A DNA stretch of 64,000 nucleotides from an uncultured virus (IMG/VR IMGVR_UViG_3300010048_000003) (IMGVR_UViG_3300010048_000003), one strand, 5' to 3'; positions 1,192-58,330 are shown, numbered from the stretch's first letter. Numbers and translations: made by a program. Notes: generated by a model from the sequence alone, not told the origin.

Positions 1192-1964
1192 TTCAGGATC
1201 TCCATCACTTCCGGATAAGCTTTGTGAACGAGATAGCTCTTTTCCCATTTGCCGTACCGGCCGATCCGGGAAATCTCAGGATGACACGTACAGTCGGTAC
1301 TGAGAGGCTTAGCGACAGCAGCTAGCGATTCGCCATTGCTAGGACGTTGTGACCATTCAGTTGTCCGGTAGCCGAAGACGCATGCGCTACGGTACCAGGT
1401 ATGTTCGTCGGTTCCGTCACAGACAATAGTGTCATCGACACTATTCTCTTGTGTCATACTCCCGGTCGCGTATATGACGTGATGCCTGAAGATATGACGT
1501 CGATCGCTACATAGTGCGGGTGCGGGAATGGTTGAGATCATCACGCTAGGGTTGGCGCGGCGTACCTCGGTCGGTAGCTCGCCATCTGAGATGGTTGGAG
1601 CTATAAGGAACTGTACTTGGCCGGGGGTCTCGTGAAGATGCATCCACATCGCCGAGTACGTCATCCTGATATCCCAGGCTTCATGTTCTCCGACAAAGTC
1701 TTCGGGCGAGACCTTGCCCATCCAGCCGTCGCCGTACACCTTGTAACGGTACTGTTCTGGCGTACCGCGCAAGGTGTAGTTGACTACGGTATGTGGCACT
1801 TGTTCGTATCCGGGGACCGGGGCATGGAGGTACTGACATCCATACTGTCGACTACGGCGGTCAGTATTGCTAACGAGCATGACGGTAAGGCCGGACCTGA
1901 CGACAGCCGTAGCTGCCGCCAGACCGGACGGTCCGCAGCCCAGGATGACTACGTCAACCGACAT
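1188..1964 (-). CDS. FAD-dependent oxidoreductase, UDP-galactopyranose-mutase-like
   Basis: Rossmann motif VVILGCGPSGL. YGCQYLH resembles Glf YGxHxFH, and C-terminal IGRYGKW resembles Glf GRLGxY. Shorter than Glf. Confidence 0.65.
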   Translation of the reverse strand: MSVDVVILGCGPSGLAAATAVVRSGLTVMLVSNTDRRSRQYGCQYLHAPVPGYEQVPHTVVNYTLRGTPEQYRYKVYGDGWMGKVSPEDFVGEHEAWDIRMTYSAMWMHLHETPGQVQFLIAPTISDGELPTEVRRANPSVMISTIPAPALCSDRRHIFRHHVIYATGSMTQENSVDDTIVCDGTDEHTWYRSACVFGYRTTEWSQRPSNGESLAAVAKPLSTDCTCHPEISRIGRYGKWEKSYLVHKAYPEVMEILK

Positions 1965-2329
1965 AATATGAATCTTCCATACTCATCTCGTTCCCTCCTG
2001 AACGCTGCTTCTCTTCTCATTGGCGCTATTCTCTTTTGTGATGCGGACATCTTGCTTTTTATTCCATCGAGTCCGTTGTGTCTTTTTGTCTCCCATCCCT
2101 TCCGGTATATATCATCATAAAGGCGATGACATTTTACGCACATAGGCTGATAGTTGTTTATGTCTAGTTCATCAGTGTCGTGAACGTGAGCCCATTCCTT
2201 GGCATTTTGGCCGCATGTACTACACGCGTACTTTTTGGCCTTTCCGCGTTCACGACTAATTCTTTGATGTATACCGTTGTATGTGACGTTATCTTTGTAT
2301 CGTTCTGGGTGGTTGTTATACTCCTTCAT
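1949..2329 (-). CDS. HNH endonuclease
   Basis: CSTCG...WAHVH...NYQPMCVKCH. Confidence 0.75.
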   Translation of the reverse strand: MKEYNNHPERYKDNVTYNGIHQRISRERGKAKKYACSTCGQNAKEWAHVHDTDELDINNYQPMCVKCHRLYDDIYRKGWETKRHNGLDGIKSKMSASQKRIAPMRREAAFRRERDEYGRFILCRLT

Positions 2330-2330
2330 C

Positions 2331-2684
2331 TTAGCCGATGTTGAATATGCGCTGATACAGCAGTTCCTGCTTGTGGAGTAGTATTTGGCGAACTTCGGAG
2401 GTATTCTTCTTGAAGTGCTGCATCGCAAGGATGGCTGTGAGTGCCTGGTCGGCTAGCTCGTCGAGACGTTCCTCTGGCGTCGCGTATACGCCCTTGCGTG
2501 GGTTCTGGCCGGTAACGCCGATCTGGGCATCTACTGCCTCGCCTAGCTCCTCGATGCCCTTGGAAATCCGTGCCCAGTCCTGAGCCAGGGGCTGGTCCTT
2601 GTATTCCTGGCTGACGTTCTCGTCGAGCCATTCATCGACACGGTGGATGATCTGCCAGTCGATCGAATCCTCAAGATAGCTCAT
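2331..2684 (-). CDS. MazG-like nucleotide pyrophosphohydrolase
   Basis: KGIEELGEAVDA...GQNPRKG...DELADQ acidic motifs. Confidence 0.8.
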   Translation of the reverse strand: MSYLEDSIDWQIIHRVDEWLDENVSQEYKDQPLAQDWARISKGIEELGEAVDAQIGVTGQNPRKGVYATPEERLDELADQALTAILAMQHFKKNTSEVRQILLHKQELLYQRIFNIG

Positions 2685-3289
2685 CCTGTGATCCTCGTGA
2701 TTCGGGGGTTGGCGCGGGTTAGCGTGTAGCCTGGGATCTGCCGGTAGCAGACTGTGCTGTTGAAGCTCTGGTAGAACGTGAACTGGTGGAGCGGCGCGGG
2801 CGGCGGCCCGAACGCCTCGGCGATTGCCTCCTGGGTGCTGTGGTCCGAGTACTCAGAAGTCACGGTACGGTCGAAGTGCCATCCTTGGTTGCGGTCGGTA
2901 ATCCCGATCGCGTACCTGGTACCGCCAAGGTACCTGATGTGTACCGAGACGTAGTCTCCCTGGCGAGCTACTTCTGGCACCGCAACATAAGGGTTCGGCC
3001 AGGCCTGAGTCCATACCTTGTACGTAGTATGGCCGTAGCGTTCTGTAGCAGTGAATCCCGCGCGCTCCCTGCCATGATGCCCGAGACCGGCCCATATTGA
3101 AGTTGCTGTTGTTCTGGAACCGGTACTGGCCGACCCGAATAGCCACCAGGCGGTAGTCATTACGGATGTCGGCCCGGCCGCGCATCCCTCCCAGCCTAGG
3201 ACTGATGTTGTTGGAGTTCCCGTGAATGCGGTTGCTGCCATTACCGCTGTTATTGCTGCTGATACTATCATGGCCATTCTCCGGACCAA
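2681..3289 (-). CDS. Secreted protein, possibly G1 glutamic peptidase-like fold
   Basis: Signal-peptide-like N-terminus; SIWAGLG, GDYVSVHI and QEAIAE resemble peptidase G1 motifs. Confidence 0.45.
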   Translation of the reverse strand: MVRRMAMIVSAAITAVMAATAFTGTPTTSVLGWEGCAAGPTSVMTTAWWLFGSASTGSRTTATSIWAGLGHHGRERAGFTATERYGHTTYKVWTQAWPNPYVAVPEVARQGDYVSVHIRYLGGTRYAIGITDRNQGWHFDRTVTSEYSDHSTQEAIAEAFGPPPAPLHQFTFYQSFNSTVCYRQIPGYTLTRANPRITRITG

Positions 3290-3364
3290 ACGGCCCGGAG
3301 GAATTCCGCATGGGTTTCCCTCCGGAGCCGTTCAATCTCTGCCGCTAGGTTCCTGGCGATGGGG

Positions 3365-4186
3365 TTAAAATGGAGGCTCGTTGTCGTCGCCGCCGCCACG
3401 GGCACGACCCCGGCCGCGAGCTGGCGCGGGTTTTGCTGCGGCGGGCTTCGCAGTCGCTCTGGCGCCGCGCTGGCCACGGGCCGGAGCGGGCTTCTCCGGC
3501 TCTTTCGACGCCGCGCGGGTACGGGTACCCCGAGCCGGGGCAGCGGGCTTCTCCGGGGCGCTACGGGCGCTGGCACGGCCCCTTCCGCGCGACGGGGCCG
3601 GTTCCGGTTCCGGCTCCTCCTCAGGCTCCTCCTCAGGCTCCTCCTCAGGCTCCTCCTCTTCGTCTACTGGTTCTTCGTCGGACTCCTCCCATGGGAGCCA
3701 TTCCTTCACGGCGGGCTTGTACTCGCCGTTGTAGCGCTCCCGGTCGGTGATGATGCGGCCCCAGGCCTCATCATTCTCCTCGCCCGGATGGAAGGTGCCG
3801 ATTGAATTGATGGGCGCGCCGTTCTGGTCGTCCTTGTCGGCTACGTCCGTCTTCGTCTTGACGTCCTTGAGCGTGATCCCGTAGTTGTCGAGGAACGGGG
3901 CCCAGCGGAACTTGGCGCCGCCGATCAGCGCGTAGTTGAGCCAGAACGGGCAGCCGTTGAATTCCTCTTCATCGCCATCGTTCTCGGCGGCGAGCCAGAG
4001 GATCTTGAGCATCGGGTCGCCGTTCTGCGTTCGCGTCCACCACATCTTGCGAACGAAGCCGGACAGCTCGGTGTCCTTTGGCGGGACTTCGCCATCGTAG
4101 GTGTCGAACGTCTCGGTTGAGTACTCGATCGCATCGAGTTCATCAACGTCGAGGTCTTCCGTGTCCTCTTTGCGGAGGCGTACCAT
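3365..4186 (-). CDS. Probable single-stranded DNA-binding protein
   Basis: Follows the exonuclease and AAA genes; acidic low-complexity linker; C-terminal DDNEPPF tail. Confidence 0.6.
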   Translation of the reverse strand: MVRLRKEDTEDLDVDELDAIEYSTETFDTYDGEVPPKDTELSGFVRKMWWTRTQNGDPMLKILWLAAENDGDEEEFNGCPFWLNYALIGGAKFRWAPFLDNYGITLKDVKTKTDVADKDDQNGAPINSIGTFHPGEENDEAWGRIITDRERYNGEYKPAVKEWLPWEESDEEPVDEEEEPEEEPEEEPEEEPEPEPAPSRGRGRASARSAPEKPAAPARGTRTRAASKEPEKPAPARGQRGARATAKPAAAKPAPARGRGRARGGGDDNEPPF

Positions 4187-6366: not shown

Positions 6367-7116
6367 CTAGTAGGGTGCCTCCGCACCGGCCTTGGCCGGC
6401 GTACGGCCCCTGCGTCGTGCGGGAGCTGGCGGCGGTGCCGCAGCGGCAGCGGCGGCGGCCTTGGATGCGTTCGACGGTCGACCGCGCTTCCTTGGTGCCG
6501 GCTCTGGCTCGGGTTCGGGTTCAACTTCGTCCTGGCGGCCAGCGCGGCGCGCTTCCCGGCGGGTGATGTTGAAGTCGGACTTCTGGAAATGCGGATACAG
6601 GGATGAGCCGAGAACCAGGAGCTTGTCCACCGGGACATCCTCCAGCGCGGCGACGTTGTCCTCGAACCACGTCACGTAGTCGGTCATCGTTGGCGACAGA
6701 TCCTTGTCCAGATACTTCTGGTAGTCGATCTGGCCATTCTCTTCCGGCTCTGGTGCCGGAGGCGGCGCTGTCTGGGTGGACCTACGTCCCCTGGCAGGCG
6801 GCATATGCGTGTCCTCTCGTTCGGACTTCGCTGAGGGGGTTCCCTTACTCTCCCGAGTATACGCCATCCGGCGAGTGGGCGCTACCCCCTTTCTAGATTT
6901 TTCTCGATGATCTTCGAGCGTGAACCGGCCGCGTCCGAGGTAACGCAGGGTAATGAATCCAGCCGAATTCGGTACCTTCCATTCCTTGTTTGGACGGCGC
7001 TTATCCATGGCTGTATAGTTAAGCGCTAGGTAGGCGTTATCCTCGCTGTAGCCGTACTCATTCATCAGTTCGGCAGCGATCGTCCTAACTCCGCGTCCAA
7101 TCATGGCAGTTGCCAC
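6367..7116 (-). CDS. Hypothetical protein; probable internal start at 6804
   Basis: 249-aa ORF; an internal promoter and RBS precede ATG 6804; core resembles the 18009 and 21313 products. Confidence 0.6.
   Translation of the reverse strand: MATAMIGRGVRTIAAELMNEYGYSEDNAYLALNYTAMDKRRPNKEWKVPNSAGFITLRYLGRGRFTLEDHREKSRKGVAPTRRMAYTRESKGTPSAKSEREDTHMPPARGRRSTQTAPPPAPEPEENGQIDYQKYLDKDLSPTMTDYVTWFEDNVAALEDVPVDKLLVLGSSLYPHFQKSDFNITRREARRAGRQDEVEPEPEPEPAPRKRGRPSNASKAAAAAAAAPPPAPARRRGRTPAKAGAEAPY
6856..6884 (-). promoter_or_regulatory. sigma70-like promoter
   Basis: TAGCGC-N17-TATACT. Confidence 0.65.
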
Positions 7117-7354
7117 AGTATCCCTCGAATACGTCGTCTGAACTGTGTGATATGTGTCCGCATCGCGGACAGGTAAAGCCTGGCGGTTCCGGTCGCGCTA
7201 CTTCGCCCTTTGGCCTGCGCACGATTTCGTCGGCGTAATCCTCGCAGGCCTGGTACTCTTCCGGGGTAAGCGGATCAGGCCATTGCTTCCCGAGTAGATG
7301 GACCTTGTCGGCGAATGCCTCGTACCACTTGTTGTCGAGTTCTTCCTCAGTCAT
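7085..7354 (-). CDS. Hypothetical zinc-ribbon protein
   Basis: FTCPRCG...GYCGNCHDWT. Confidence 0.55.
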   Translation of the reverse strand: MTEEELDNKWYEAFADKVHLLGKQWPDPLTPEEYQACEDYADEIVRRPKGEVARPEPPGFTCPRCGHISHSSDDVFEGYCGNCHDWTRS

Positions 7355-7430
7355 GGTAGCTGCAATACGAATATCGTAATGACGAATGCTACCAGAACTA
7401 CCGTCAGAGCTATGATGAATATCTTCTCTA

Positions 7431-9362
7431 TCACCCGTTGTCCGTTCCGGCAATAGCCATTTCGCTAAGCTTGACTGGACTCGCGGTCTCGACAGCGGCG
7501 CGCTGCTCATCATTGAGGTTCGCGATCCACTCGTCGATCGTGCCGACTGAGACTAGTCGGTAGATCGTCACCTGGTGGATGCGGCTTACCCGGTGAATCC
7601 GCGAGAACAGCTGTTCGTCACGGTCGGAGATCCATGGCATGTCGAGCACGACCATCTCGTCGGCCGCGTCGAGCGTGATTGATTCGCCGCCCGCGTCACG
7701 ATTTATACATACCACCCGGAGGGAATCGTTTGGGTCTTGGAACCGCGTGACTAGATCCGCGCGGTCTCGGTCTGACGTTGCCCCTGTTAGCGTCAGCACC
7801 TCAAGCCCTTGCGCTCGAATCTCGCGGGCGGCTAGCTCTACCATGGAGGAGAAGCTGGAAGCTACGACCACTTTCTGTCCGGTGTCCTCCCGCTCCTGAA
7901 TGAATTCAAGTAGCCATTCGATCTTGTTTGATGGTAGGACCGGGATAAGGTGTTGTCGGCCTTCACCGCCTCGGTCGTGCGTCGCGGTAGCGAACTGCCG
8001 GAGTCGCGTGATCTCGGCAAGTACGCCCGTCGCGGTGATCTTACCGCTCTCAAGCTGGGCTTCCGCGAGCGACTCCATCGACCAGTATGCCTTCGACTGT
8101 TCCGGCGTCATGTCGAGCTGAACGTAACACGGGCTGTTCGGGTCGTTAGGGTCGATAGGCGTACCAGCGTACATGATCTCCGGTAGGTCTGGCGCGGCTT
8201 CTGCCTTATTGCGCTTCAGGTAGTAGGGCCGGAGCATCTTGTCCCATGTCTCCATATCCCTAGGCTCTAGTACCTTGTCACCGCCACCTACGATCTTGCC
8301 ATATGTCCCCTCCTCGACACCGAAGTGTAGTCCGGCCCATCGCCAGTAGCTGCTGAACACGTCGGGCCGAAGCCAGTTGAGTGTACCCCAGCCCTTCTCA
8401 AGCTTGGAGCGGAACGGCGTGCCGGACAGGGCAATGGCTAGGCCATTCGGCCGGAGCTGCTTCCTGACCTTTGACGCGCCGAACCGGCCTAGCGTGATCC
8501 GCTTGGACTGGATGTTCGCGGTCGAGGCGAGGATGTTGTGTGATTCATCGAATACGATGGCATCCCACTTTTGCGAAGCGAAGAACGGGAAGTCGAACGT
8601 CGCATGATACTCATGACGAGGATGTCCGTACGGAGCTGACCCGTTGAAGGCGCACTCGCCATTCACTCCGGATGGACAGTGTTCCTTACGCTTGGCCCGG
8701 ATCATCTCGATGTTGATGATAAGCATCTTGCGGCCGCCATGGTATGTGTAGTAGTCGTACATCACGGCTTCACGTTCGGCTCTTGTTCCTTCCGCAACGA
8801 ACGTCTTGATCGTCGGGGTCCAGCGCAGTGTCTCGCGCTCCCACACAGTTCGCTTCGCGGTCTTGCGACACGAAACAAGAATTTCCTGCGCGTCGTTCTC
8901 AATCAATGCCGCGAGCGTCTGGAGAGTCTTGCCGAGTCCTGGGTCATCACCGAGGATCACGTTCTTGCCGGCCAGGATGAAAGCCGTACCTGCTATCTGA
9001 TACTTCCGGTTGAGCATCGCCGCCATCAGGTCGGGCGCTTCCTCAGCGACCCGAGTGAAGGTTATGTTGTGAATGTTCTCTTCGCGCATCTCCTCTAGGT
9101 GGCGTTCCTTCGCCACTTCCTTGCGAGCCCAGTCAGCTAGTGCCGGGAGGATCTCAAGCTCATCACCGAACTCCTTGCGGAGTGCTCGGCAGGAATCCAT
9201 CGTGAGCGGATAGGACCACCCGAGGAATATGCTCGGAGTCACGCTCCTGTCCCAGTCGGCACGAGCGCCGGGAACTCTCTTGGCGGCACGCGGACCCTGA
9301 CCACTCTCATAATCGATTTTGGCTAGGACTCGCTTCCCGTCCGTCGTTACTATCGCCTTCAT
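7431..9362 (-). CDS. SNF2-family helicase
   Basis: DDPGLGKT, FDESH, LSGTP, SRIHRVS motifs. Confidence 0.9.
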   Translation of the reverse strand: MKAIVTTDGKRVLAKIDYESGQGPRAAKRVPGARADWDRSVTPSIFLGWSYPLTMDSCRALRKEFGDELEILPALADWARKEVAKERHLEEMREENIHNITFTRVAEEAPDLMAAMLNRKYQIAGTAFILAGKNVILGDDPGLGKTLQTLAALIENDAQEILVSCRKTAKRTVWERETLRWTPTIKTFVAEGTRAEREAVMYDYYTYHGGRKMLIINIEMIRAKRKEHCPSGVNGECAFNGSAPYGHPRHEYHATFDFPFFASQKWDAIVFDESHNILASTANIQSKRITLGRFGASKVRKQLRPNGLAIALSGTPFRSKLEKGWGTLNWLRPDVFSSYWRWAGLHFGVEEGTYGKIVGGGDKVLEPRDMETWDKMLRPYYLKRNKAEAAPDLPEIMYAGTPIDPNDPNSPCYVQLDMTPEQSKAYWSMESLAEAQLESGKITATGVLAEITRLRQFATATHDRGGEGRQHLIPVLPSNKIEWLLEFIQEREDTGQKVVVASSFSSMVELAAREIRAQGLEVLTLTGATSDRDRADLVTRFQDPNDSLRVVCINRDAGGESITLDAADEMVVLDMPWISDRDEQLFSRIHRVSRIHQVTIYRLVSVGTIDEWIANLNDEQRAAVETASPVKLSEMAIAGTDNG

Positions 9363-9920: not shown

Positions 9921-10730
9921 TCAGAGGCGATCAAGACTGCCTCCATGTATTGCGGAGGCTTCCTGCCAGCCCGGGATGAAGTCATCGAGCATGCGCTGCC
10001 AGGCTGTCCTGAGCGGTTTATCAGGTGTGTTCGTGTAGTCTGGCCACATGCCGTGAATGATGGTCATACACTCTCGCTCGGCGGCCGTGCGCTTCTCTGG
10101 CGCCCTGAAGCGTGTATTGATACCGCCGGGCGCATAGCGCTTGCCGATTGGGTCAACCTTGACATCACAGTGAACGAGCCACGGAATTCCGTTCTTGATT
10201 CCGTGCCGTGCTAGTTCAGCATCCTCGCCGAGTGAGTGTAGCCTGATGTCAAAGTTTCCGCAATCAAGTGTTTTGCTGATGTTCAGGGCGAACACCTGGA
10301 ATCCCCAGCCACCCGGACATAGGATAGGTCCGTGATTACGGGATACCGCGCCCTGAGACATCAGGTCGTGAATGCTACGTGTTGCGCCAATGCCCAGGAC
10401 GCCTGGTTTCTTGGCTTCCTCCAGGAGTTCGTACATGTCTGTGCCGTTCTTCGGGCGCAGGTCATCGTCAGCCATGATGATGGCATCGAGAGCGGTACGG
10501 CTAGCGTGCTTGACACAGTAGTTGCGAACATAGCCAATACCGCGACCGTTCGATGGAGTGGGCAGGATGTAGACTTCCTTGCCCCACTTCATCTCTCGCT
10601 TGACGGCGGTATAGGTGGCGTACTCGTACCGGTCAACTACCAGCCTGACCTGTAGGTCTTGCTCAAGCCAGTACGGCACCACAGTCCTGATGTTGCCGGT
10701 ACGGCCCATAGTTGGAATGTAGACGACCAT
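9921..10730 (-). CDS. Glycosyltransferase, TET-associated (TAGT/GREB1-like) GT-A type
   Basis: VYIPTMGR, GIGYVRN, IIMADDD, GED and PGG motifs in the order typical of TAGT-like enzymes. Confidence 0.7.
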   Translation of the reverse strand: MVVYIPTMGRTGNIRTVVPYWLEQDLQVRLVVDRYEYATYTAVKREMKWGKEVYILPTPSNGRGIGYVRNYCVKHASRTALDAIIMADDDLRPKNGTDMYELLEEAKKPGVLGIGATRSIHDLMSQGAVSRNHGPILCPGGWGFQVFALNISKTLDCGNFDIRLHSLGEDAELARHGIKNGIPWLVHCDVKVDPIGKRYAPGGINTRFRAPEKRTAAERECMTIIHGMWPDYTNTPDKPLRTAWQRMLDDFIPGWQEASAIHGGSLDRL

Positions 10731-13624: not shown

Positions 13625-13697
13625 ACCAACCCCTCTTTCAGGAGGGTAACCCTCCTCTTTTGACGCTTCCCTTTTCGGCGCTTCGCGCGCCTACCCT

Positions 13698-13726
13698 AGT
13701 ATACCGCTGCCAGGGCCGTAGCGGAA
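13698..13726 (-). promoter_or_regulatory. sigma70-like promoter
   Basis: TTCCGC-N17-TATACT. Confidence 0.6.
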
Positions 13727-13760
13727 GCCCTAGCCGTTTTGAGTTTAGGCTAGGGCTTCC
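13723..13760 (-). terminator. Hairpin, probable terminator
   Basis: GGAAGCCCTAGCC...GGCTAGGGCTTCC 13-bp inverted repeat after the DUF2786-like gene. Confidence 0.5.
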
Positions 13761-13791
13761 CTACCGGCGCGCGGAGCCGACGCCGCTACGG

Positions 13792-14745
13792 CTATGACAG
13801 GGCCTTGTGGTTCCCGCTTGTCGCTTCCGGGTTCAGCTTGGCTGTGTTGGCGTGGCCGACGCCCTTGCCGTAGGCCGTGGCGTTGTAGACTGTTTTCTTG
13901 CCGGCCATGGCCCGGGCATTCGGGAAGTCATCAGACATGGCGGCGGCGATGTTCTGACTCTTGTCTGCGAGCACCAATTCCGCGCCGGAGCCACGCTGGC
14001 CGGATATCTCACGCAGGCGCTGCTTGATCCTGGCGAGGTAGCCGCTGGCTGCGTTCCGTCGGTAGGTCATGCTACCGTTCGGCGCGACCCGCACCGCCTG
14101 TTCGCCGCGCCGCTTGATCTCCCGGTTATAGGCGGCCTTGATGACCCCGATAGCCTGGGACCAGGGCTTCCGCTCCCCGGTATTCCGGTTGACGTACATG
14201 TTAACCGGCTCATGAGACTCTGGCGGAACCTGGTACCAGCCATACGCCTTGGCAATGTCGAACCAGTTGAGCCCGGCGTTGTGGAGCTCATAGGCGTTCT
14301 GTTCCAGTGTCTTGTTCGGGTCTGGCTGCGGGAAGATCGCGCCTGACATGTGGAGGAACAGGCTGGTGTAGAGCAGTTCGAAGTACCGCAGGTCAGACTC
14401 GTAGCCGTACACCCAGCAGTAGTCGCGGCCGGTGGTTGACCCAGCGCTGATCCAGATGGAGGAGCACTTACAGAAGCTGGAGACGATGTTGACGAGCGTT
14501 GCCATCTCCGTGAGGAATGGGTTGTCCGAGTCGCTGAGTTCGATGCGTATGCGAGTCGGCTTGGCGGCGACAGGTGCCTTGCGCATCGTCTGCCATTCCT
14601 CGACGGCATACTTCTGCATCATGGCATCAGCCCGTTCGCGACAGGCATTCGCCTCATGAGCCGCGTTGGGGTCCTTGGACATCTCCAGAGACTCAGCCTT
14701 GGCGATCAGGCCGCGAATCTTGTCCAGTACTCCTGCGAGTTCCAT
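13792..14745 (-). CDS. DUF2786-domain protein
   Basis: LDKIRGLIAKAES...EANACRERADAMMQKYAV; VYGYESD. Confidence 0.75.
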   Translation of the reverse strand: MELAGVLDKIRGLIAKAESLEMSKDPNAAHEANACRERADAMMQKYAVEEWQTMRKAPVAAKPTRIRIELSDSDNPFLTEMATLVNIVSSFCKCSSIWISAGSTTGRDYCWVYGYESDLRYFELLYTSLFLHMSGAIFPQPDPNKTLEQNAYELHNAGLNWFDIAKAYGWYQVPPESHEPVNMYVNRNTGERKPWSQAIGVIKAAYNREIKRRGEQAVRVAPNGSMTYRRNAASGYLARIKQRLREISGQRGSGAELVLADKSQNIAAAMSDDFPNARAMAGKKTVYNATAYGKGVGHANTAKLNPEATSGNHKALS

Positions 14746-17330: not shown

Positions 17331-17531
17331 CTAGGACGGGTTGCCGTAGCCGTGGCTAAATGGCCCGGCTCCTGGGTCATGTCGTGCGTGCTTGCCGACT
17401 GGCCTCATGGACTTGATCTGCTCAAGCGGGATCAGGTCCCATGTGCCATCCTCCTGCCTGATGAGGACCATAGCATTGGCCTCATCCTCGGACATCTCGC
17501 TGAGCCTGGCGATGACTTGTTCTTTGGTCAT
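17331..17531 (-). CDS. Hypothetical protein
   Basis: GAGGAG RBS before MTKEQV. Confidence 0.5.
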   Translation of the reverse strand: MTKEQVIARLSEMSEDEANAMVLIRQEDGTWDLIPLEQIKSMRPVGKHARHDPGAGPFSHGYGNPS

Positions 17532-17778
17532 GGCTACTCTCCTCGGCTTGAATGAGTGACGGAAATACCACGAGAGGTCATAATCCAGGAACCTGAATCT
17601 GGGTATGCGAACCACGTCCCTTCTTCAAATACCGCGACACCTCTCACGTTGTCCTCGGTATACTTGGGGCCATGAAGCAGCTCTGCGACTGCTTCGCGAA
17701 TTGACTGGTCAGTTGCTCTCTGGATCAAGTCCTTCCTGCCCCTCTTGACCTGGCCGTGCTTGTGCCCGAAGCTAGTCA

Positions 17779-18012
17779 TCACAGCCTTTCGTTGTCCTCG
17801 ATGACTAGCTCCAGTGCCATGCCGTCGACATGCCACTTGCCCTTGATGACCACGGTGAACGTCTCATCGCCGTGGACCTCAATGGAGTCAGTCGGCATCT
17901 CCATGAACTGAGCGATGTACCGGGCAATGGCGCTCTCAGCCACCAGGTCGATGTTGGTGTCTGGCTCGTGTTCGACGTCTGCCTCAGTAACTGAGAACCG
18001 CTTGTACTTCAT
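17779..18012 (-). CDS. Hypothetical protein
   Basis: MKYKRF start with ATGA overlap. Confidence 0.5.
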   Translation of the reverse strand: MKYKRFSVTEADVEHEPDTNIDLVAESAIARYIAQFMEMPTDSIEVHGDETFTVVIKGKWHVDGMALELVIEDNERL

Positions 18013-18497
18013 GCGGCGTCCGAGACGTTCAGGTCTGACGACTGGAAGTAGCCGTACGCCTTGCTGGCGATCATGACGATCCGCATGGTGGCGTCGTCGC
18101 TGGGGTCGATCTCCAGGCCTGGGTACTCCCTGGCGATCCACTGGGTGAACTGGACCATGGCGCGCGGGATTGGCTTGGCTGCCCACTGCTGGGCACCGGT
18201 CACGCGCTTCGTGCCGTTCGCCTTGGCCTTCCCCTTTTGGGCCGGTTGCGGCTCGTACTCCGGCAGATCGTCAGTGCAGTTCTTGAAGTCCATCTCCTCC
18301 CACAGGTATGGCTTGAAGCCTTCCTCATCCTTGTGGTCGTTGTTGATGTCGGACCAGTGGTCGGAAGCGAATGCCTCCTTGCTGGTCCAGTCGAACTGGC
18401 CCATCTCGATCTGGTCAGCCTCGCGAGGCTTGCGGTGGGAGCAGCCCTTGCGGTGGATGATGACTGAGTCGCTGACACGCCATGCCATGAGGAACAT
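18009..18497 (-). CDS. Hypothetical protein, paralog of 21313..21684
   Basis: Shared C-terminal IPRAMVxFTxWIAREYPGL...IASKAYxYFQSSDLNV. Confidence 0.75.
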   Translation of the reverse strand: MFLMAWRVSDSVIIHRKGCSHRKPREADQIEMGQFDWTSKEAFASDHWSDINNDHKDEEGFKPYLWEEMDFKNCTDDLPEYEPQPAQKGKAKANGTKRVTGAQQWAAKPIPRAMVQFTQWIAREYPGLEIDPSDDATMRIVMIASKAYGYFQSSDLNVSDAA

Positions 18498-18540
18498 GAT
18501 TTTCGCTTTCTGTTTGACGCGGGTCTTTCCCGCTACATCT

Positions 18541-18569
18541 AGGATAGCCGATGCTAAGGTGCTGCGCTA
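18541..18569 (-). promoter_or_regulatory. sigma70-like promoter
   Basis: TAGCGC-N17-TATCCT. Confidence 0.6.
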
Positions 18570-18596
18570 GGGCAGCACCCTAACAAATTCGGATTG

Positions 18597-18743
18597 TTAC
18601 TCTATGACGTCCTCGTCATCATACTCGTATTCCGGTGGATCTGGGTACATCTCGTCATAGATGCCCATTTCGACATCCTCTGGTGCCTCGAACAGCGGGC
18701 CTGGGTCGCCGTAGTTGTCGAGGTTGTCGTCAAAGCCCCTCAT
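18597..18743 (-). CDS. Very acidic 48-aa protein
   Basis: Manual translation MRGFDDNLDNYGDPGPLFEAPEDVEMGIYDEMYPDPPEYEYDDEDVIE. Confidence 0.55.
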   Translation of the reverse strand: MRGFDDNLDNYGDPGPLFEAPEDVEMGIYDEMYPDPPEYEYDDEDVIE

Positions 18744-19008
18744 TGTTGCCCATGACCTCTCTGGCCAGTTCTGGCCGGTTGGTGGCGACCTGGAACCAGC
18801 CGGTCACGTCGATCATGTCCTGCGTCAGCGGGCTCATGTTCTCTGCGACCGACGTTGGGTCGGCGATTGCGTCGGCTAGGCTGCGCAGGCAATCAGCAGC
18901 GAACTCACGTGACATTCCACAGGCAAGCGCGTGGCGCGTTGCGACAGTGGTCATCATCGTGAGCCAGTTGTAGTTGGTCTCTTCCTGGTCAGGGATTTCG
19001 GATGTCAT
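18730..19008 (-). CDS. Hypothetical protein
   Basis: GAGG RBS; lies in the early gene run. Confidence 0.55.
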   Translation of the reverse strand: MTSEIPDQEETNYNWLTMMTTVATRHALACGMSREFAADCLRSLADAIADPTSVAENMSPLTQDMIDVTGWFQVATNRPELAREVMGNNEGL

Positions 19009-19435
19009 CTGTCCTCTCCTCCAGTGTTAGGCAGATTCCGTTGATGACGTCAAGGATGTCGTCATCACTGACGCCTGCCTTGGCTGCCTTGTGTACGGCA
19101 GCAATCATCTCGTTGGCGAATGTCTCTAGCGGTGTCTCGTCCATGGGTTTCCTTCTGTTAGCAGCCGCAGCTTCCATTAACGGAGCGGTACTCGAAGCAG
19201 TCGTGGCACAGGTTTTGCTTCACGATCCTGAATCCGCCGTCAAACGCGCGGTCAGCGGCCTTGTCCGCCGCGATCATCGCGCGAATGCCGCCGGTCGGCC
19301 GACGGTCGACAACGAGGTCGACACGGTTCTGGATTCCGCCGTGGCGAGATCCGCTCGTGTATTGCGCCTTCACACTGTCTAGCATTCTATTTTCCATTTC
19401 TTCGATTGTCCGCGCCGTTTTCGGCGCTACGCTAA

Positions 19436-19464
19436 AGTATACCGCGCCAGGACGGGCTGCGCTA
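19436..19464 (-). promoter_or_regulatory. sigma70-like promoter
   Basis: TAGCGC-N17-TATACT. Confidence 0.65.
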
Positions 19465-19553
19465 GTGTTCAGTCCCTGAGCACGGAACAATCTCGAAACT
19501 TGTTTCCGCTGCGTCAGGAGGCAGTCCCTCTGCGGAGGGTACCCTCCTTGCGG

Positions 19554-19799
19554 TCAGAATTCATAGCAGATGATGACCGGCTTGTTGAAGTACTTGGCAT
19601 CTGTGGTCGGTGATGGCGCAACAAGCCAAACACGATCATCAATGCCCATAGCCACTGCCCACTTGACTGCGTGGTTCATGTCTGGGAACGCGATGAATAT
19701 ACACGTGATGTTGTGATCATCGACATCAGCAACCGCACGGTAGAATGCGATTGCCTCATTGACGTGATCAAGCGGTGTCAGCTCAGCAACGGGCTCCAC
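19554..19799 (-). CDS. Hypothetical protein
   Basis: GGAGG RBS before GTG. Confidence 0.55.
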   Translation of the reverse strand: MEPVAELTPLDHVNEAIAFYRAVADVDDHNITCIFIAFPDMNHAVKWAVAMGIDDRVWLVAPSPTTDAKYFNKPVIICYEF

Positions 19800-20006
19800 A
19801 CGACCTCCTCATGCTTGGGTGGCTTGGCGTCATTCGGGAACTTGTCCTGACGACAGTATACACCAGGATGAATGCGGTATGCGTTGATCTCGATCCTGAT
19901 CCTGTCGTCAGTCGTCTGCGGTGGCCATTGCTGGTCACACAGGAAACATGTCCACGTCGTCTTGCGCGGAATTCCGGTATTCACTTGTATTGACCCTCCT
20001 TGTTGG

Positions 20007-20261
20007 TCAGTCCTCGTGGACGAGGTTCATGAGTGCTCGTGCTGCCTTGTGTGGGTTGTGGTAGCGTCGCACGGCACGCTCTGGCATGCCATCACCAGGA
20101 CGGAAGGCAACCGCCCATCTGGTTTCTGCTTCACGCTCGACAATGACCCTCTGGACTTCGCCAGGCTTGGCGCCAGAGACTGTCATCGTTCTGCCCTTGC
20201 CACGGCCGATGTTCATCGTCCATAGCAGGCCCACAACGAGATCTTCGTGGTCCATAAGCAT
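20007..20261 (-). CDS. Hypothetical protein
   Basis: AAAGGA RBS before MLMDHED. Confidence 0.5.
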   Translation of the reverse strand: MLMDHEDLVVGLLWTMNIGRGKGRTMTVSGAKPGEVQRVIVEREAETRWAVAFRPGDGMPERAVRRYHNPHKAARALMNLVHED

Positions 20262-20407
20262 TCCTTTCTTGAGTTTTGACAGTCCATCTGAGGACTGGAA
20301 TGCCGGAGGGTATCTGTACCCTCCGGCAAACCAGCTACCAGATGTCACCTATGTCTTTGGGGTCTGGATTCATGGAATCCTCGCCAACGAGCATGACTAG
20401 CAGGCGA

Positions 20408-20626
20408 TCAAGCCACGCGGTCATTCGCCAGCTCCACTCGGTTGCCCATGCGGTCGCAGGTGTAGCCATAGCCAAGCTGCATGAAGAGGACCCTAGCAGC
20501 ATTGGCGGCATCATCACGCTCACGATCAAGCATGAAGTTCGGCTGGTGGAGCGCAGCCATGAGGACATGCGCTACAGAGTCGGCTTCACGCTGGGTCATA
20601 CCCAGTGCGATGTTCTCACTGTTCAT
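20408..20626 (-). CDS. Hypothetical protein
   Basis: ORF in the early gene run. Confidence 0.55.
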   Translation of the reverse strand: MNSENIALGMTQREADSVAHVLMAALHQPNFMLDRERDDAANAARVLFMQLGYGYTCDRMGNRVELANDRVA

Positions 20627-20795
20627 TTTTCTGTTTTCCCATCGGTGTCAAACAGGAGGGTATCCCTCTTGTTTTTGGGGGCATCTTGCTGAGGAGGGTA
20701 ACCCTCCTTTTTGTATTGCCAGTCCTTGCGGACTGGAATGCCTAGGGAATTGATTTTCCCTAGACAAACCAGATCACAGGATTGTTGTTGTCGTG

Positions 20796-21149
20796 TTACT
20801 TGTCCCAGTACTCGCCATGCTCGGCGAGGTTACAGCCGCACTCTAGCACTGCCCAGGACAGACCCTCCCCGGCAAAACCGGAGTTGTAACCGGAGCGCAC
20901 GATCCGTGTTGGCCCATGCTTTTCGCATTCTGCCGCGTCATCGTGTTCGGGGATCTCCTTCCAGGAATTGTCCTGGTCCTCAGGGATGAGTTCGAACTCA
21001 TCTGCCGGATTGGGGATCTCCCCTGCTGCTGCCTTGGCTGCCTCGACCACGCGGTCGGAATCGGCATGCCGCGGCACATAGTGTGTTGTCGCGGCGATCG
21101 AACTGGCGACGGCATTTTCGACGTCGCAGTTGTGCGCGTGCTTGGCCAT
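20796..21149 (-). CDS. Hypothetical protein
   Basis: GAGGAG RBS; CEKHG...LECGC. Confidence 0.6.
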   Translation of the reverse strand: MAKHAHNCDVENAVASSIAATTHYVPRHADSDRVVEAAKAAAGEIPNPADEFELIPEDQDNSWKEIPEHDDAAECEKHGPTRIVRSGYNSGFAGEGLSWAVLECGCNLAEHGEYWDK

Positions 21150-21312
21150 TTGGCTCCTCTATGTTGTTTTTCGACCTGGCTCTTCAGCTCGGGTAGGTCA
21201 GCTCCCGAAGACACAACACGCCCATCGGTGCTATGTTTCGCCTGTATTCGATTTTCGGTAAAGCGGAGGGTTACCCTCCGGATTTCTCCGGAGGGTAATC
21301 CTCGCGAAATTC

Positions 21313-21684
21313 CTAGACGTTAAGGTCCGACGACTGGAAATACCGATACGCCTTACTCGCGATCGTAACGAGCCGCTCCGTACGATCGTCCGCGCGGCCG
21401 TTTTCGCCTAGCGCGATTCCGAGTCCCGGATATTCCCGCGCGATCCACTTCGTAAAGCCGACCATAGCGCGCGGGATATCCTTAGTCCCGTAATTCCCGG
21501 GACCGGAATTTCCGCGCGACGCGATAGCCGCCTCTTTTTCGGCGCGTAGCGACTCGATTTCCGCGCGAAGCCTCGCGATTTCGAGTAGTTCGCTCTCGGA
21601 AACCGGCGCGGGAAGAGTAGACGTCTTTTCCGAGACTTCGCCCTTAGCCGGGGTCGCCTTAGAGGAAATAACGCTTCGCTCCAC
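21313..21684 (-). CDS. First early gene, with CA/TG-purged coding sequence
   Basis: Paralogous domain to 18009..18497; directly downstream of two tandem promoters. Confidence 0.75.
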   Translation of the reverse strand: MERSVISSKATPAKGEVSEKTSTLPAPVSESELLEIARLRAEIESLRAEKEAAIASRGNSGPGNYGTKDIPRAMVGFTKWIAREYPGLGIALGENGRADDRTERLVTIASKAYRYFQSSDLNV

Positions 21685-21770
21685 TTTTTTCTCTTTTCTA
21701 TTTCGGGGTAGCCGAATTAAGCCGGACTTTTCCGGGTTTCGGGTACGCCTATTACGAGCCCGTCGAGGGG

Positions 21771-21941
21771 CGATTTTTAGAAAACGCTACCGCTTTTTAC
21801 GCGCCGCGCTTTTTCGCGAAATTCGCGTTTCCGCGTTTCCCGCTACCGCTAGTCTACCCGAGTTTCGCGTTTTCCGCTAATCGGCTCGTTTCGCGTCGCG
21901 AAAGTCCTAACCGATTTTAAGGAAACGCTACCGCTTTTACG
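21771..21941. repeat. Imperfect ~30-bp direct repeat pair
   Basis: CGATTTTTAGAAAACGCTACCGCTTTTTACG (21771) and CGATTTTAAGGAAACGCTACCGCTTTTACG (21912). Confidence 0.75.
21851..21879 (-). promoter_or_regulatory. Early promoter
   Basis: TAGCGG-N17-TAGACT. Confidence 0.65.
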
Positions 21942-21990
21942 AGCGAGTCGCGAACCGTCGCGATCCGGAACTTCCCGGCCCGACGAAAAA

Positions 21991-22019
21991 AGACTACCCG
22001 ACCGGTTTCCGGGAAGCGA
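21991..22019 (-). promoter_or_regulatory. Early promoter
   Basis: TCGCTT-N17-TAGTCT. Confidence 0.6.
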
Positions 22020-22244
22020 ATAAGTCTTTCGAAGGACTAGTCTTCGGATTTCGTTCGAATTACGGAAGGGGTAAATTCGAAAACCGCGCCGCGCGTCGCG
22101 AACGGCCGGAACCGCTACGATACCCCTAGACGGGCCGGAAAGGCGCCTCTCGCGCGACGAAACGCCGGTCGCGGGTATTAGCTAGGGTCCGTTTTCCGAC
22201 GCCGCTACGGCGAAAAGATATCGAAAGACTTTTACCAATAGTCG

Positions 22245-23078
22245 TTCGTAGTCGAGTAAGGTCAAACGTCGCGATCGTAGTCGACTAAGGTCAAACGTCT
22301 CGTACGTAGTCGACTAGACGATCGTAGTCGAGCGCTACGTTTGTAGTCGACTAGCTCGTTCGTAGTCGACTACCCAAAGGTAACGATTAGGTTACGGATT
22401 TGGTATATAACGATCTCGTAACGCTCTATCGTAGTCGACTACTAGACTGCAGTCGACGACGTCGACGACTACGAACGTAGTCGACTACTCAAAGACGTAC
22501 GAACGTAGTCGACTAGTCAAACGTAGTCGACTAGTCAAACGTAGTCGACTACTCAGATACGTACGAACGTAGTCGACTACTCGACTACAATAGAGCGCTA
22601 CGATTGTAGTCGACTACTCGATTGTAGTCGAGTTCGCGATTGTAGTCGACTACTCGACTACAATAGAGCGTCGCGAGTGTACTCGACTACAAACGAGCGC
22701 CATCGGTGAGGGTGGCGAATTCTCGAAGCCCATCGGTCGCAGTAGGGAGTTCCTATTTGCAGTCGACTACAGTCAGGGAGTTCCTATTACAGACGACTGG
22801 GGTCGAGTGGGATGGACTGCAGTCGACCGGGGTCAGATGGGGTCGACTACCCCCGGCTGCACTCGATGCGAGGCGAACCCAATCGAGCGCAGGTGACTGG
22901 GCTGGACTGTAGTCGACCCCAAGCGAGCCCATCGGTGGCCCATCGGTCGCAGTCGACTACACCCAGAGTGCAGACGTAGTCGGTCGATCGTCCTCAACTG
23001 CATTCGAGTGTAGTCGACCGCAATTTACTGCACGCGACGCCCATCGGTGACGATTGGCCGCAGTCGACTGCAGTCGAG
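22245..23078. repeat. Array of GTAGTCGACTAC-like palindromes with CCCATCGGT repeats
   Basis: More than 20 full or partial copies with irregular spacing. Confidence 0.9.
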
Positions 23079-23199
23079 GCCCATCGGTGGGGGGCGACCC
23101 CCTGGGAGGAGGCTTCTCCCAGACCACGAAGTGTAGTCGTCTAGAATCGCAACTAATTTCGATATCTGTTCTGTATTGGCTTCATTGGCATATACGGAC

Positions 23200-23233
23200 A
23201 AAAAAAAGGGGCCCAGCCGAAGCCAGGCCCCTT
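23200..23233 (-). terminator. Intrinsic terminator
   Basis: GC-rich hairpin followed by a T8 tract on the minus strand, just after the 23247 gene. Confidence 0.7.
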
Positions 23234-23246
23234 CTTGCTAGGTGGG

Positions 23247-23921
23247 TTACGGAATGGTGTTCCACATGAACGTGGAGGCGTGGTTGTGGCTCACGTTCAC
23301 CAGCCGCTGTGCGTCCACGTTACCGGACAGGTGCCCGGGCGCGTCGATCGCGAGGTGGTGATCGCTGTTCGCCGCCTGCGGGGCCCAGAGCACGAACGTG
23401 TAGCCGTGCGTGGCCGGGTTGACGAACGGAGCGGTATCGGTCAGGATGAAGGCCTGGTTGGCCGCACCGTCGCAGCTCTGGAGCGTGGTCTTCGTAGCGC
23501 TCGGCTGGAGGCACCATCCCGAGTCCTGCCCGAACGGCGTGAACTCGATGGAGACGATGGCGTCGCCGCCGTAGTGGAGGACATCGAACGCGGTCATGCC
23601 GTCGCTGCCGTCACCGACGAAGTCGTCGTAGTTGAGGGTGAAGTCCTGCGAACCGTCCTGGAGGTCGTTGGAGATGTTCATCTGAACATTCGCTCCGGCC
23701 TTGGGCGTGCCGACGACAGTCAGGCCCGCGTCCGAACGCGGGTAGAAGTCGTGCGAGCTGATCGCAGACTGCGCCACCACGATGCCCGAACAGCCGTCGA
23801 ACATTGCCTGGCAGGCGTCAGTCGCGTCGGCGGGCCGGACGTTCGCCGAGGCAACCCCACCCGCTGCCGCGAAGACGCCGAGCACTGCTGCTGACATGAG
23901 TACTGCTGACTTGCGGAACAT
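23247..23921 (-). CDS. Secreted protein, ricin-B-lectin-like
   Basis: Signal peptide ending ASA; WCLQ...LQSCDGAANQAF motif. Confidence 0.6.
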   Translation of the reverse strand: MFRKSAVLMSAAVLGVFAAAGGVASANVRPADATDACQAMFDGCSGIVVAQSAISSHDFYPRSDAGLTVVGTPKAGANVQMNISNDLQDGSQDFTLNYDDFVGDGSDGMTAFDVLHYGGDAIVSIEFTPFGQDSGWCLQPSATKTTLQSCDGAANQAFILTDTAPFVNPATHGYTFVLWAPQAANSDHHLAIDAPGHLSGNVDAQRLVNVSHNHASTFMWNTIP

Positions 23922-24042
23922 ATGATGTTCCCTTTCTGTCGCGCAGGTTGCTTTCCCAACCTGCTATCCCTCCCCTGAGGAGGCTTTAGTTCCGGCCGCG
24001 TGCCGGCGACTTCTGGGGAGAGTTTGACACGCGACCGGAAGA

Positions 24043-24613: not shown

Positions 24614-24919
24614 CCAGATTTCGCCTTCTCAGTAGGGGGAGTGGTAGGCCGGGAGGATTTGTGAATATGGACGTCGCCCGTCGAGTGCGTCTCTTGGGGT
24701 TGAAACGACGGGCTGGGATCTCGGCCTACCACTGGATCTTGCTGTCGGCTAGATCTCTCGAATCGCATCACCTCCGTTCCTGAAGCCTGACCGGGAAGCG
24801 AGAGGTTGAGGAGATACCGCACCTGGTAGGGGGACCACCAGGCACTATACCCGCTTGCGATACGGTAGCGGCTAACTTCCATTCCTATCCTAACCTCCCC
24901 TCGCTTCCCGGCTACGCCT

Positions 24920-24948
24920 ACTATAGCGCGTCGGGCCGGAAAAGGGAA
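24920..24948 (-). promoter_or_regulatory. sigma70-like promoter
   Basis: TTCCCT-N17-TATAGT. Confidence 0.6.
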
Positions 24949-24951
24949 CCC

Positions 24952-25497
24952 CTAATTTCGCCCATAATATTCGGCAAGGTAAGGCCACAAAGAGTTCGCC
25001 CACTCCGGGTTCTCACGAGCGCGTCGCAAGGCTGTTATGCCATGTCGCAATGCCGCGCGGACATGATCGCTGCCTTTTACCCATAGCCGCCACCTGTGGA
25101 GGCGTTCATCTGTTACTGTACCGAATGCGAGGGTACGTGACTGGAAATGGAGGGTTGCGTCGGCGAGTAGTTTCTGTTCTTGGAGGAGTGTCATCATCGC
25201 GCCTAGGCGTACGGGAGATAGAGCCTCCGGATCTGTGGAGTGGAATGTTGGGTCCTGATCCCAGGCTTCCATGATCATGGCAGGACCAACTTTGTAGTCT
25301 AGACCCTGAATCTCTCGTACAAGCCGGGCTAGCTCGATTGCCTGTTGTGGCTCCGGCCCCGTGAACTCGCCCCAGTCATGCTCGATGATCGAAGACGGGG
25401 CATCTCCAAAAATACAGTCGGCCGGTACTGTAATGTTGTACCAGCCGGTCGTTCCTCCGGGGTCAATGCCCATGACGTGGATATTCTTTGGCGCCAT
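24952..25497 (-). CDS. RuvC-like Holliday junction resolvase
   Basis: MGIDPGGTTGW, IMEAW, DHVRAALRH. Confidence 0.75.
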   Translation of the reverse strand: MAPKNIHVMGIDPGGTTGWYNITVPADCIFGDAPSSIIEHDWGEFTGPEPQQAIELARLVREIQGLDYKVGPAMIMEAWDQDPTFHSTDPEALSPVRLGAMMTLLQEQKLLADATLHFQSRTLAFGTVTDERLHRWRLWVKGSDHVRAALRHGITALRRARENPEWANSLWPYLAEYYGRN

Positions 25498-27963: not shown

Positions 27964-28062
27964 GCGATAGACCCGGGCACCGCCTCCCCCTCTATATCGA
28001 ATTTATATATATATATATAGAAGATATAGCCTAGGGGGCGGTGCCGGACCCTATCGCCTAGA
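27959..28062. other. Probable replication origin: inverted repeat around a (TA)n core
   Basis: TCTAGGCGATAG/CTATCGCCTAGA and GGCACCGCC/GGCGGTGCC arms flank an AT-only centre; directly after the helicase. Confidence 0.55.
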
Positions 28063-28088: not shown

Positions 28089-28286
28089 ATGAACGACCGG
28101 GAAGACGCTATCAAGATGCTAAACTGGCTAGTCGAAAATCCGGGTTCTACGGCCTATGAAATCTCGATTGGAGCAGGTATTTCAGACCCTTATCGGGCGT
28201 TTTCTTTGCTAGCGGCTTTGGAGGTTGCCGGAGCCGTTTCAAGGCGTACGGCAAAGTCTAAGGTCAAATGGACGATTATGCCGTAG
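28089..28286 (+). CDS. Small winged-HTH protein
   Basis: NPGSTAYEIS...LAALEVAGAVSR...KW. Confidence 0.65.
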   Translation: MNDREDAIKMLNWLVENPGSTAYEISIGAGISDPYRAFSLLAALEVAGAVSRRTAKSKVKWTIMP

Positions 28287-28318
28287 TCGACCGTCGTCGG
28301 GCTAATCCGATTCGGGTC

Positions 28319-28347
28319 TAGACGGATCGGTCGCGATCGAGTACGAT
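28319..28347 (+). promoter_or_regulatory. Promoter of the packaging operon
   Basis: TAGACG-N17-TACGAT. Confidence 0.65.
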
Positions 28348-28356
28348 ACTACCTAG

Positions 28357-28468
28357 GCACCGAATGTCGCACTGAGGCGGTGGATCAGGATGGAGGGTTT
28401 CGGCCCAATGGAGGTTTGTGGCGCGGGATCATTCCCTTGTCCTGCGTCCGGTGGTAGTGCGACGGTGC
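28357..28468 (+). ncRNA. Candidate structured RNA or leader
   Basis: Nested pairings GCACC/GGTGC, GTCGCACT/AGTGCGAC, CAGGA/TCCTG, GAGGG/CCCTT. Confidence 0.4.
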
Positions 28469-39332: not shown

Positions 39333-39358
39333 ACGCGGGAGCGAAGCCGTAGTATAAT
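39330..39358 (+). promoter_or_regulatory. Promoter for scaffold/capsid genes
   Basis: TAGACG-N17-TATAAT. Confidence 0.7.
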
Positions 39359-39386
39359 CGCGCTAGGTACGATGGGAGTGTAGCTG

Positions 39387-58329: not shown

Positions 58330-58330
58330 A

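Follow-up and report, generated by a model that had tools for sequence, protein, structure and literature searches.

In restriction-site avoidance, selection removes from DNA the short words that are read by a DNA-targeting enzyme. A removal of this type is also found in the locus described here: an island of 993 nt with next to no CA or TG dinucleotides, which lies in a stretch of 64,000 nt from an uncultured virus (IMG/VR record IMGVR_UViG_3300010048_000003; the whole stretch is referred to as the window) and which encloses one small gene on the minus strand (21313–21684). The island differs from restriction-site avoidance in that the word is two bases long and not a site of 4–8 bp, and in that this word has been removed completely, though over 1 kb only. 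The removal has also reshaped the amino acid content of the encoded protein, which has no Cys and no His, and the start codon in two lineages. Small self-contained early cassettes that must function while the remaining genome is not yet safe or usable, as may be the case here, are known from the pre-early (first-step-transfer) region of T5-like phages and from the leading-end gene ocr of T7; what sets those regions apart is their place at the entering end and their timing, with no dinucleotide ban. Base J, the glucosyl-hydroxymethyluracil of kinetoplastids that is linked to transcription termination, offers a further likeness, being a glycosylated thymine derivative whose placement controls RNA polymerase. 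This system is eukaryotic and has its mark put at chosen regions, whereas here, if the reading developed below holds, the sequence itself makes a region unmarkable.

Two phage systems in which thymine is altered also resemble the locus. The Pbunavirus phages F8 and 14-1 carry a sugar-type hypermodified thymidine in the TG motif; such phages can lack the known modification genes, as the authors note, and END nucleases of the host act on hypermodified DNA at an early stage of infection (Yee et al. 2025, PMC12191111). TG is the two-base unit that matters in these phages as in the island, although F8 and 14-1 are Pseudomonas myoviruses unrelated to the soil siphovirus of the window. The phage thymine dioxygenases are described in a second paper as post-replicative and sequence-specific, with one enzyme preferring NTC and another, the ParB-dependent 5mYOX176, preferring NTG followed by NTA; of the contigs with such dioxygenases, 31% also encode glycosyltransferases and only 6% C5-methyltransferases (O'Toole et al. 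2026, PMC13229309). The likeness of 5mYOX176 lies in post-replicative, sequence-specific thymine oxidation that primes glycosylation, and the differences are that TA is not depleted in the island (observed/expected ratio, O/E, 1.2–1.4), that neither Tet_JBP nor ParB_N was detected in the genomes with an island, and that the covered parts of that paper describe no motif-free regions (PMC13229309).

A gene encoded at its CA/TG minimum

The gene at 21313–21684 had been singled out by a model from the sequence alone (the sequence-only reading), and our analysis confirms this observation, in a stronger form than first put forward: the gene forms the coding half of a TG/CA-free transcription unit that is conserved, lineage-specific and under selection at the level of the DNA, and the rewriting probably spares this gene alone a chemical mark. 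The features concerned are the following:

21243–22236, no strand assigned: CA/TG-free island, 993 nt, 4 CA/TG, O/E 0.05 and 0.02
21313–21684, minus strand: island copy of the shared domain, 123 aa, with a disordered N-terminus, a coiled coil (30–56) and a helical C-terminal domain (64–123)
18009–18497, minus strand: paralogue of normal composition, 162 aa, with an N-terminal alpha/beta domain (1–~98) and the shared domain (~100–158)
6367–7116, minus strand: third, distant paralogue, 249 aa, with the domain at ~133–185 and C-terminal basic motifs of the RGRP/RGRT type

Across the window, CA and TG occur as often as expected (O/E 1.00 and 1.01), and in 200 first-order Markov simulations of the whole window the longest CA/TG-free run averaged 63 nt, with a maximum of 96 nt; the runs inside the island measure 554, 219, 111 and 92 nt. 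The avoided unit is the dinucleotide: the other 14 dinucleotides show O/E values of 0.70–1.98 in the window island and of 0.48–1.96 in the islands of two relatives, with CG (O/E 1.98), AA, TT, GA and TA raised as a plain ban on CA/TG predicts. The island gene retains four CA/TG, located in its GTG start and in the codons for Met74, Trp80 and Gln117, and dynamic programming over all synonymous encodings of the protein returned this same number as the minimum. Resampling of synonymous codons at the codon usage of the window gave 33.0 ± 4.1 CA/TG, with a lowest sample of 18 and 0 of 20,000 samples at four or fewer. Of the 122 residues after the start, none is Cys or His and one each is Gln, Met and Trp, five residue types that make up 10.75% of the proteome (binomial P 6e-4).

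The claim that one domain is encoded in this genome both with and without CA/TG is borne out by alignment, in which the C-terminal 59–64 residues of the two small proteins (18009–18497 and 21313–21684) share 40 of 64 positions (63%; BLASTP, E 1e-24), and by the counts per gene, which are 4 (the minimum possible) versus 75. The latter value, for the 18009 gene, exceeds the expectation of 62.6 ± 4.4, and the third paralogue, also with 75, matches its own (75.1). Within the shared domain there are 3 CA/TG in the island copy and 27 in the 18009 copy: over the 59 aligned positions, codon junctions contribute 0 and 11, respectively, and the codons for the 40 identical residues contain CA/TG in 3 versus 7 cases. 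The 18009 paralogue shows that the domain itself does not require CA/TG-free encoding.

The sequence-only reading had further proposed that Gln and Met were replaced in the island copy, citing VGFTKW and VTIAS. Both strings also occur in other members of the family and are therefore weak as evidence on their own; the replacement is better seen in an asymmetry, since Gln, Trp or Met is present in the 18009 copy but not in the island copy at seven positions (their island counterparts being Gly, Asn, Tyr, Gly, Lys, Glu or Thr) and the converse occurs at none, and in a normally encoded orthologue (locus L009) that reads GHRAYATK...AMIQFAKW where the window has PGNYGTK...AMVGFTKW.

The distant third copy is real, with a correction to its extent. 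Pairwise similarity to the two small proteins is weak (15 of 57 identities, E 9e-6, and 15 of 59, E 5e-5; 25–26% identity), while a family profile built from 35 members, none of them from the window, picks exactly three of the 69 window proteins (E 1.4e-35, 2.1e-31 and 2.7e-11). The open reading frame (ORF) that encodes it runs from 6367 to 7116, of which the span first given (6367–6804) is a truncated part, and it is kept at full length in relatives.

Layout of the island

The island has the layout of a complete monocistronic unit, in which promoter region, coding sequence and terminator hairpin would follow one another on the minus strand. Its non-coding parts contain the following elements:

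21771–21797 and 21912–21938, minus strand: two 27-nt repeats, 93% alike, that read AAAAGCGGTAGCGTTT followed by a TAAAAT-like hexamer
21264–21300, minus strand: inverted repeat GGAGGGTTACCCTCC / CCGGAGGGTAA, directly after the stop codon

The repeats lie in the 550 nt of non-coding island DNA upstream of the gene and are candidate tandem promoters without a -35 element; the inverted repeat is a candidate terminator, and the limit of the island at 21243 falls just beyond it. The earlier claim that each copy of the domain has its own promoter was not confirmed: the island copy has two promoter-like repeats upstream, the 99-nt gap upstream of the 18009 copy contains no consensus match on the strand of the gene, and the third copy overlaps the ORF upstream of it (7085–7513).

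Because one and the same strand is without both CA and TG, also in DNA that is unlikely to be transcribed, the constraint acts on the duplex and an RNA-level cause is ruled out. A foreign origin of the island is likewise ruled out, given that no organism lacks CA/TG and that relatives hold the island in synteny, as is a general property of intergenic DNA, for which the window has 11.1 CA/TG per 100 nt compared with 12.9 in coding DNA.

The island in related phages

The window covers nearly the whole genome of a soil siphovirus, uncultured and of the actinobacteriophage type. Two IMG/VR contigs flank position ~23,130 and together span the window, with G001 (locus L031) and G002 being the two halves of this phage; its relatives are G003 (L003), G004 (L004) and G005 (L053). 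G003 and G004 are collinear with the window over ~50 genes at protein identities of 40–85% and each contain all three paralogues. At the syntenic place both have an island, of ~860 nt in L003 and ~850 nt in L004, with 4 CA/TG each and longest free runs of 684 and 689 nt. The island genes themselves hold 3 and 4 CA/TG, compared with minima of 3 and 3 and an expectation of ~36, and what is left resides in Met, Trp and Gln codons plus one codon junction in L004. These retained Met, Trp and Gln residues occupy invariant or nearly invariant columns of the family. Identity to the window island amounts to 53–57% for the gene and 48–49% for the non-coding DNA: the island has diverged nearly to the level of unrelated DNA whilst the CA/TG ban was kept, which supports selection at the DNA level. 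CG is enriched in all three islands (O/E 1.88–1.98).

Even the start codon appears to have given way. The reading frames of the relatives (L003 777–1184, minus strand; L004 4776–5171, plus strand) contain no ATG, GTG or TTG before an internal Met, and the codon aligned to the GTG of the window is ATC, placed behind a AAAGAAAAAGG stretch; from the frames, these genes would start at ATC or ATT. A strain variant in sequencing run X3 points in the same direction, as 0 of its 6 single-nucleotide differences in the island create CA/TG compared with 33% of random substitutions, an effect that is weak alone (P ~0.09).

Other loci show that depletion is not universal. Two short metagenome contigs, L009 and L010, also contain the cassette, its orthologous gene preceded by GTAGTCGAC palindromes and CCCATCGGT motifs, at CA/TG densities of 10.3 per 100 nt (normal) in L009 and 5.8 (about half) in L010; ten further family genes have 7–13 per 100 nt. 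The trait is therefore lineage-specific and graded, and neither the protein nor the cassette as such entails it. Orthologues accordingly fall on both sides, with L003 and L004 depleted, L009 not depleted and L010 depleted by half, a mixed outcome that fits a lineage-specific agent. Purifying selection on double-stranded DNA keeps the cassette free of TG/CA: the gene sits at its minimum, the non-coding flanks are equally free, the state is kept at 48–57% identity, and the paralogue in the same genome is normal. On this point the sequence-only reading was right.

Neighbouring repeats and other CA/TG-free patches

Directly upstream of the island lies a dense array of palindromes:

22240–23140, no strand assigned: palindrome array, GTAGTCGAC(TAC)

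GTAGTCGAC has 28 exact matches in the window compared with 0.66 expected, and 24 of the 28 fall in 22277–23018. An array of this type also adjoins the cassette in L003 (1649–1870), L004 (4296–4365), L009 (43–394) and L010 (2997–3457) and is thus kept beside it in five related loci, the window included. The array is itself poor in CA/TG (2–6 per 100 nt) and may function as an origin, as a centromere-like site or as a set of operators. All assemblies break within it.

A second conserved motif, GCCCATCGGTG, is interspersed in the array and also flanks the island: with at most one mismatch it occurs 7 times in the window (1.76 expected), at 20637, 21220, 22728, 22927, 22938, 23039 and 23079, and there are many copies in L003, L004, L009, L010 and G005. 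This motif contains CA and TG and is placed just outside the island limits. Two regions are biased in the opposite direction to the island. In the early genes next to it (18001–21000) the plus strand is rich in CA (O/E 1.35, 1.34 and 1.55 per kb), meaning a TG-rich coding strand; in G005 (L053), positions 100–900 beside the palindromes reach 23–29 CA/TG per 100 nt with CACACA-type repeats.

Outside the island, the longest CA/TG-free runs of the window measure 139, 92, 83 and 79 nt and are all intergenic. Two of these have counterparts in relatives:

57498–57637, no strand assigned: intergenic CA/TG-free patch of 139 nt, with counterparts at the corresponding position in G003 (224 nt) and G004 (175 nt)
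39281–39373, plus strand: intergenic CA/TG-free patch of 92 nt, upstream of gene 39387, containing GTAGTATAATCG

GTAGTATAATCG is a TATAAT-like -10 element, and the patches of the relatives contain one as well at conserved positions (GCTATAATCG in G003 and G004); G004 has a patch of 97 nt at the place that matches 39281–39373. No TTGACA is present in these -10-bearing patches, a hexamer that would itself contain TG and CA. CA/TG depletion outside the island concerns particular sites only. Further short intergenic patches that are free of or poor in CA/TG are found at 24880–24963, 28279–28358, 27978–28042 and 13625–13791; one of them includes a (TA)n run at ~27990–28020, near the HNH-terminase junction where the genome ends might lie.

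Modification genes and the agent of selection

The only clear DNA-modification gene that we found is one for a glycosyltransferase:

9921–10730, minus strand: TET-associated glycosyltransferase (TAGT), PF20691 at 39.7 bits compared with a cut-off of 27.5, phrog_842 E 1e-12

The enzyme scores above the Pfam cut-off in G002, G003 and G004, that is in all three island genomes, while a second glycosyltransferase-like gene (57718–58353) is not shared with the relatives. C5-methyltransferase (PF00145) was absent from all four island-phage records (G001–G004) and present in G005, which has no visible island. Our best explanation, to which we would give an even chance, is that the cassette escapes a thymine hypermodification made in the TG context. 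The rest of the genome would carry a mark of the glycosylated hydroxymethyl-uracil type at TG, made with TAGT, and the cassette, having no TG on either strand, could not be marked. The unmarked gene might then be read by unaided host RNA polymerase at DNA entry, or be hidden from nucleases that sense the modification; its coiled-coil product would act first, with the two paralogues made later from ordinary, marked DNA. A more general proposal would be that TG-marking phages keep an 'unmarkable' immediate-early cassette whose product makes the marked genome readable or safe, and that this arrangement arose independently in soil siphoviruses of the actinophage type and in enterobacterial relatives of the Pbunavirus group; this we put forward tentatively, expecting that it is rather more apt to fail than to hold.

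Several results weigh against escape from a TG mark. A six-frame search of four records for Tet_JBP (PF12851) gave 0 matches at E <= 10, and a search of five records for ParB_N (PF02195) gave 0 matches at E <= 1; no dioxygenase, and therefore no source of a hydroxymethyl group, was found. G005, 98% complete and with a TAGT that is 60% identical, has no island in its contig, and so TAGT alone does not predict an island; this contig starts inside GGTCGACTAC repeats (the palindrome array), such that an island could lie past the break. F8 and 14-1, the only phages for which TG-modified thymidine has been published and in which the modification was measured and not, as here, inferred from sequence, have no CA/TG-free island (longest runs of 88 and 85 nt, normal density), which means that a TG mark does not by itself require such a cassette. 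The slight general shortage of CA/TG in intergenic DNA given above belongs on the same side. Among TAGT relatives, no island was seen in the 10-kb flanks of TAGT in 13 of them, at a locus that in the window lies 11 kb from the island, or in the whole contigs of 11. As regards the missing enzyme, thousands of dioxygenase contigs are stated to be without a Tet_JBP annotation (PMC13229309). Two genes of the window were considered as hidden dioxygenases and ruled out, 13792–14745 being DUF2786/DUF7168 and 3365–4186 being DUF669-like; 1188–1964 encodes a short FAD-binding protein.

The agent could instead belong to the host, in which case the cassette would avoid a defence nuclease or other DNA-binding protein that reads TG/CA on incoming DNA and not the phage's own mark, and the gene needed first would be cleared of these sites, as in the pre-early DNA of T5-like phages that enters first. 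That no enzyme for a hydroxymethyl base was found in the island genomes is in keeping with this, and so is an E. coli phage whose terminase is 63.6% identical to that of 14-1 and whose region 1750–3300 is depleted ~3.5-fold (53 CA/TG in 1351 non-N bases), together with a weaker CA/TG dip in Pantoea phage Kyle. This depletion can equally be set against the absence of an island in F8 and 14-1, the family Lindbergviridae including both Pbunavirus and Wifcevirus. The apparent islands of 1359, 290, 288 and 265 nt in the record of the E. coli phage (PQ604604.1) are runs of N and were discarded. We nevertheless regard a host factor as unlikely: we know of no nuclease with a two-base recognition site, and by our own enumeration CA/TG occurs in just 2 of the 16 possible four-base palindromes, making the ban a poor means of removing ordinary restriction sites. 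The contigs of all four sequencing runs break in the array, and the HNH gene and the terminase at 28.5–32 kb suggest genome ends ~6 kb away.

CA/TG is the most flexible base step, and a mechanical or architectural constraint would have CA/TG-free DNA beside the array serve an origin, partition or packaging complex, with the gene merely inside the zone. The island does adjoin the array that has 24 of the 28 exact GTAGTCGAC matches, an arrangement conserved in the five loci, and the low CA/TG density of the array itself agrees with such a zone; yet the island limits are those of the transcription unit and not of the array, L009 combines an array with a gene of normal CA/TG content, and promoter-like CA/TG-free patches occur far from any array, which makes this explanation very improbable in our view. 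Least probable of all is a local mutational footprint, for instance A-to-G change at CpA on both strands that turns CA/TG into CG, with protein function saving three codons. The roughly two-fold enrichment of CG in the three islands is what such a process would leave, but AA, TT, GA and TA are raised too, as under a plain ban, the limits are sharp and, in all three genomes despite their divergence, are those of a transcription unit, drift without selection would not account for two lineages having lost ATG/GTG/TTG starts, and the Pfam and PHROG scans contain no deaminase gene.

Whichever agent is at work, a gene at its dinucleotide minimum is direct evidence that phage DNA is read at two-base resolution, a reading that overrides codon choice, amino acid choice and the initiation codon, at a cost of two amino acids and of the canonical starts of two lineages. 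The paralogue in the same genome is a rare built-in control that separates protein-level from DNA-level constraint. Should the agent be TG-specific thymine hypermodification, the sequence would predict which phages are modified, in which context, and which gene is needed first; dinucleotide-free islands would then be a computational readout of an unknown modification motif and of the first gene. A full-text literature search returned no description of a dinucleotide-free phage gene cassette.

Protein family and predicted structure

A search of 1.84 billion sequences at E <= 0.001 yielded 51 representatives of the family. The C-terminal domain is present in ~30 of these, and ~17 contain only the N-terminal domain of the 162-aa paralogue, which is therefore a fusion. 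A typical member has a Lys/Ala/Pro-rich or RGR N-terminal tail, a short coiled coil and the C-terminal domain with the pattern G[HY]RAYATK..AM..F..WI.REFPE...RLV.IASKAY..FQ.SDLN; Tyr113 and Gln117 are invariant in 37 sequences, and Ala73, Trp80, Glu84, Pro86, Arg104 and Lys111 nearly so. Searches of Pfam, PHROGs and NCBIfam gave no family above cut-off for the three paralogues, Pfam gave none for 15 of their relatives, and a profile search of PDB sequences returned just a designed coiled coil (E 0.12).

AlphaFold models of the 21313 and 18009 proteins have pLDDT values of 87.1 and 89.6 and no fold match to solved structures (best Foldseek E 3.3 and 4.1; VIA-align Z 3.5 and 3.8). Among the weak structure rows for the C-terminal domain, chains with a histone fold turn up repeatedly and are to be taken as a lead only. 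The basic tails suggest a DNA-associated family, one that is, going by the models, possibly histone-like. The sequence-only reading had suggested a regulator family whose first member may license the expression of the remaining genome, a hypothesis that these results neither favour nor disfavour.

Gene content, relatives and strain variation

The plus strand of the window between ~29 and 57.5 kb carries terminase, portal, capsid, tape-measure and lysis genes, and the minus strand carries genes for replication, recombination and nucleotide metabolism. A HAD/kinase-like protein is encoded at 215–922. A portal search matched 857 records, nearly all of them actinobacteriophages, with the nearest portals being those of Curtobacterium and Arthrobacter phages at ~39% identity. 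Among 50,697 phage records there was no match to the DNA of 17500–23500, nor any tblastn match to either of the small proteins or to TAGT. An alignment-based viral scan for relatives returned the same three contigs and nothing further, and scans with P0034 and P0002, which have an island-like amino acid make-up, returned no locus.

The stretch 20000–24000 is present in four soil-metagenome runs from four studies, of which at most three are independent, as one may be the source sample, and none is on record as RNA; in Logan, the contigs of all four runs (4/4) end inside the repeat array. The strain in run X3 lacks 271 nt of the window (19989–20261) and, where the window has most of gene 20796–21149 (20784–21073), carries 294 letters that differ, from which it follows that the early region is mosaic; the island of this strain differs at only 6 positions. 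At the far end, a ThyX-like gene (63301–64000) runs past the limit of the window and has a full length of 297 aa in G001 (L031, 235–1556), where an HNH gene comes next; the matching place in G004 is occupied by a gene for a short-chain dehydrogenase.

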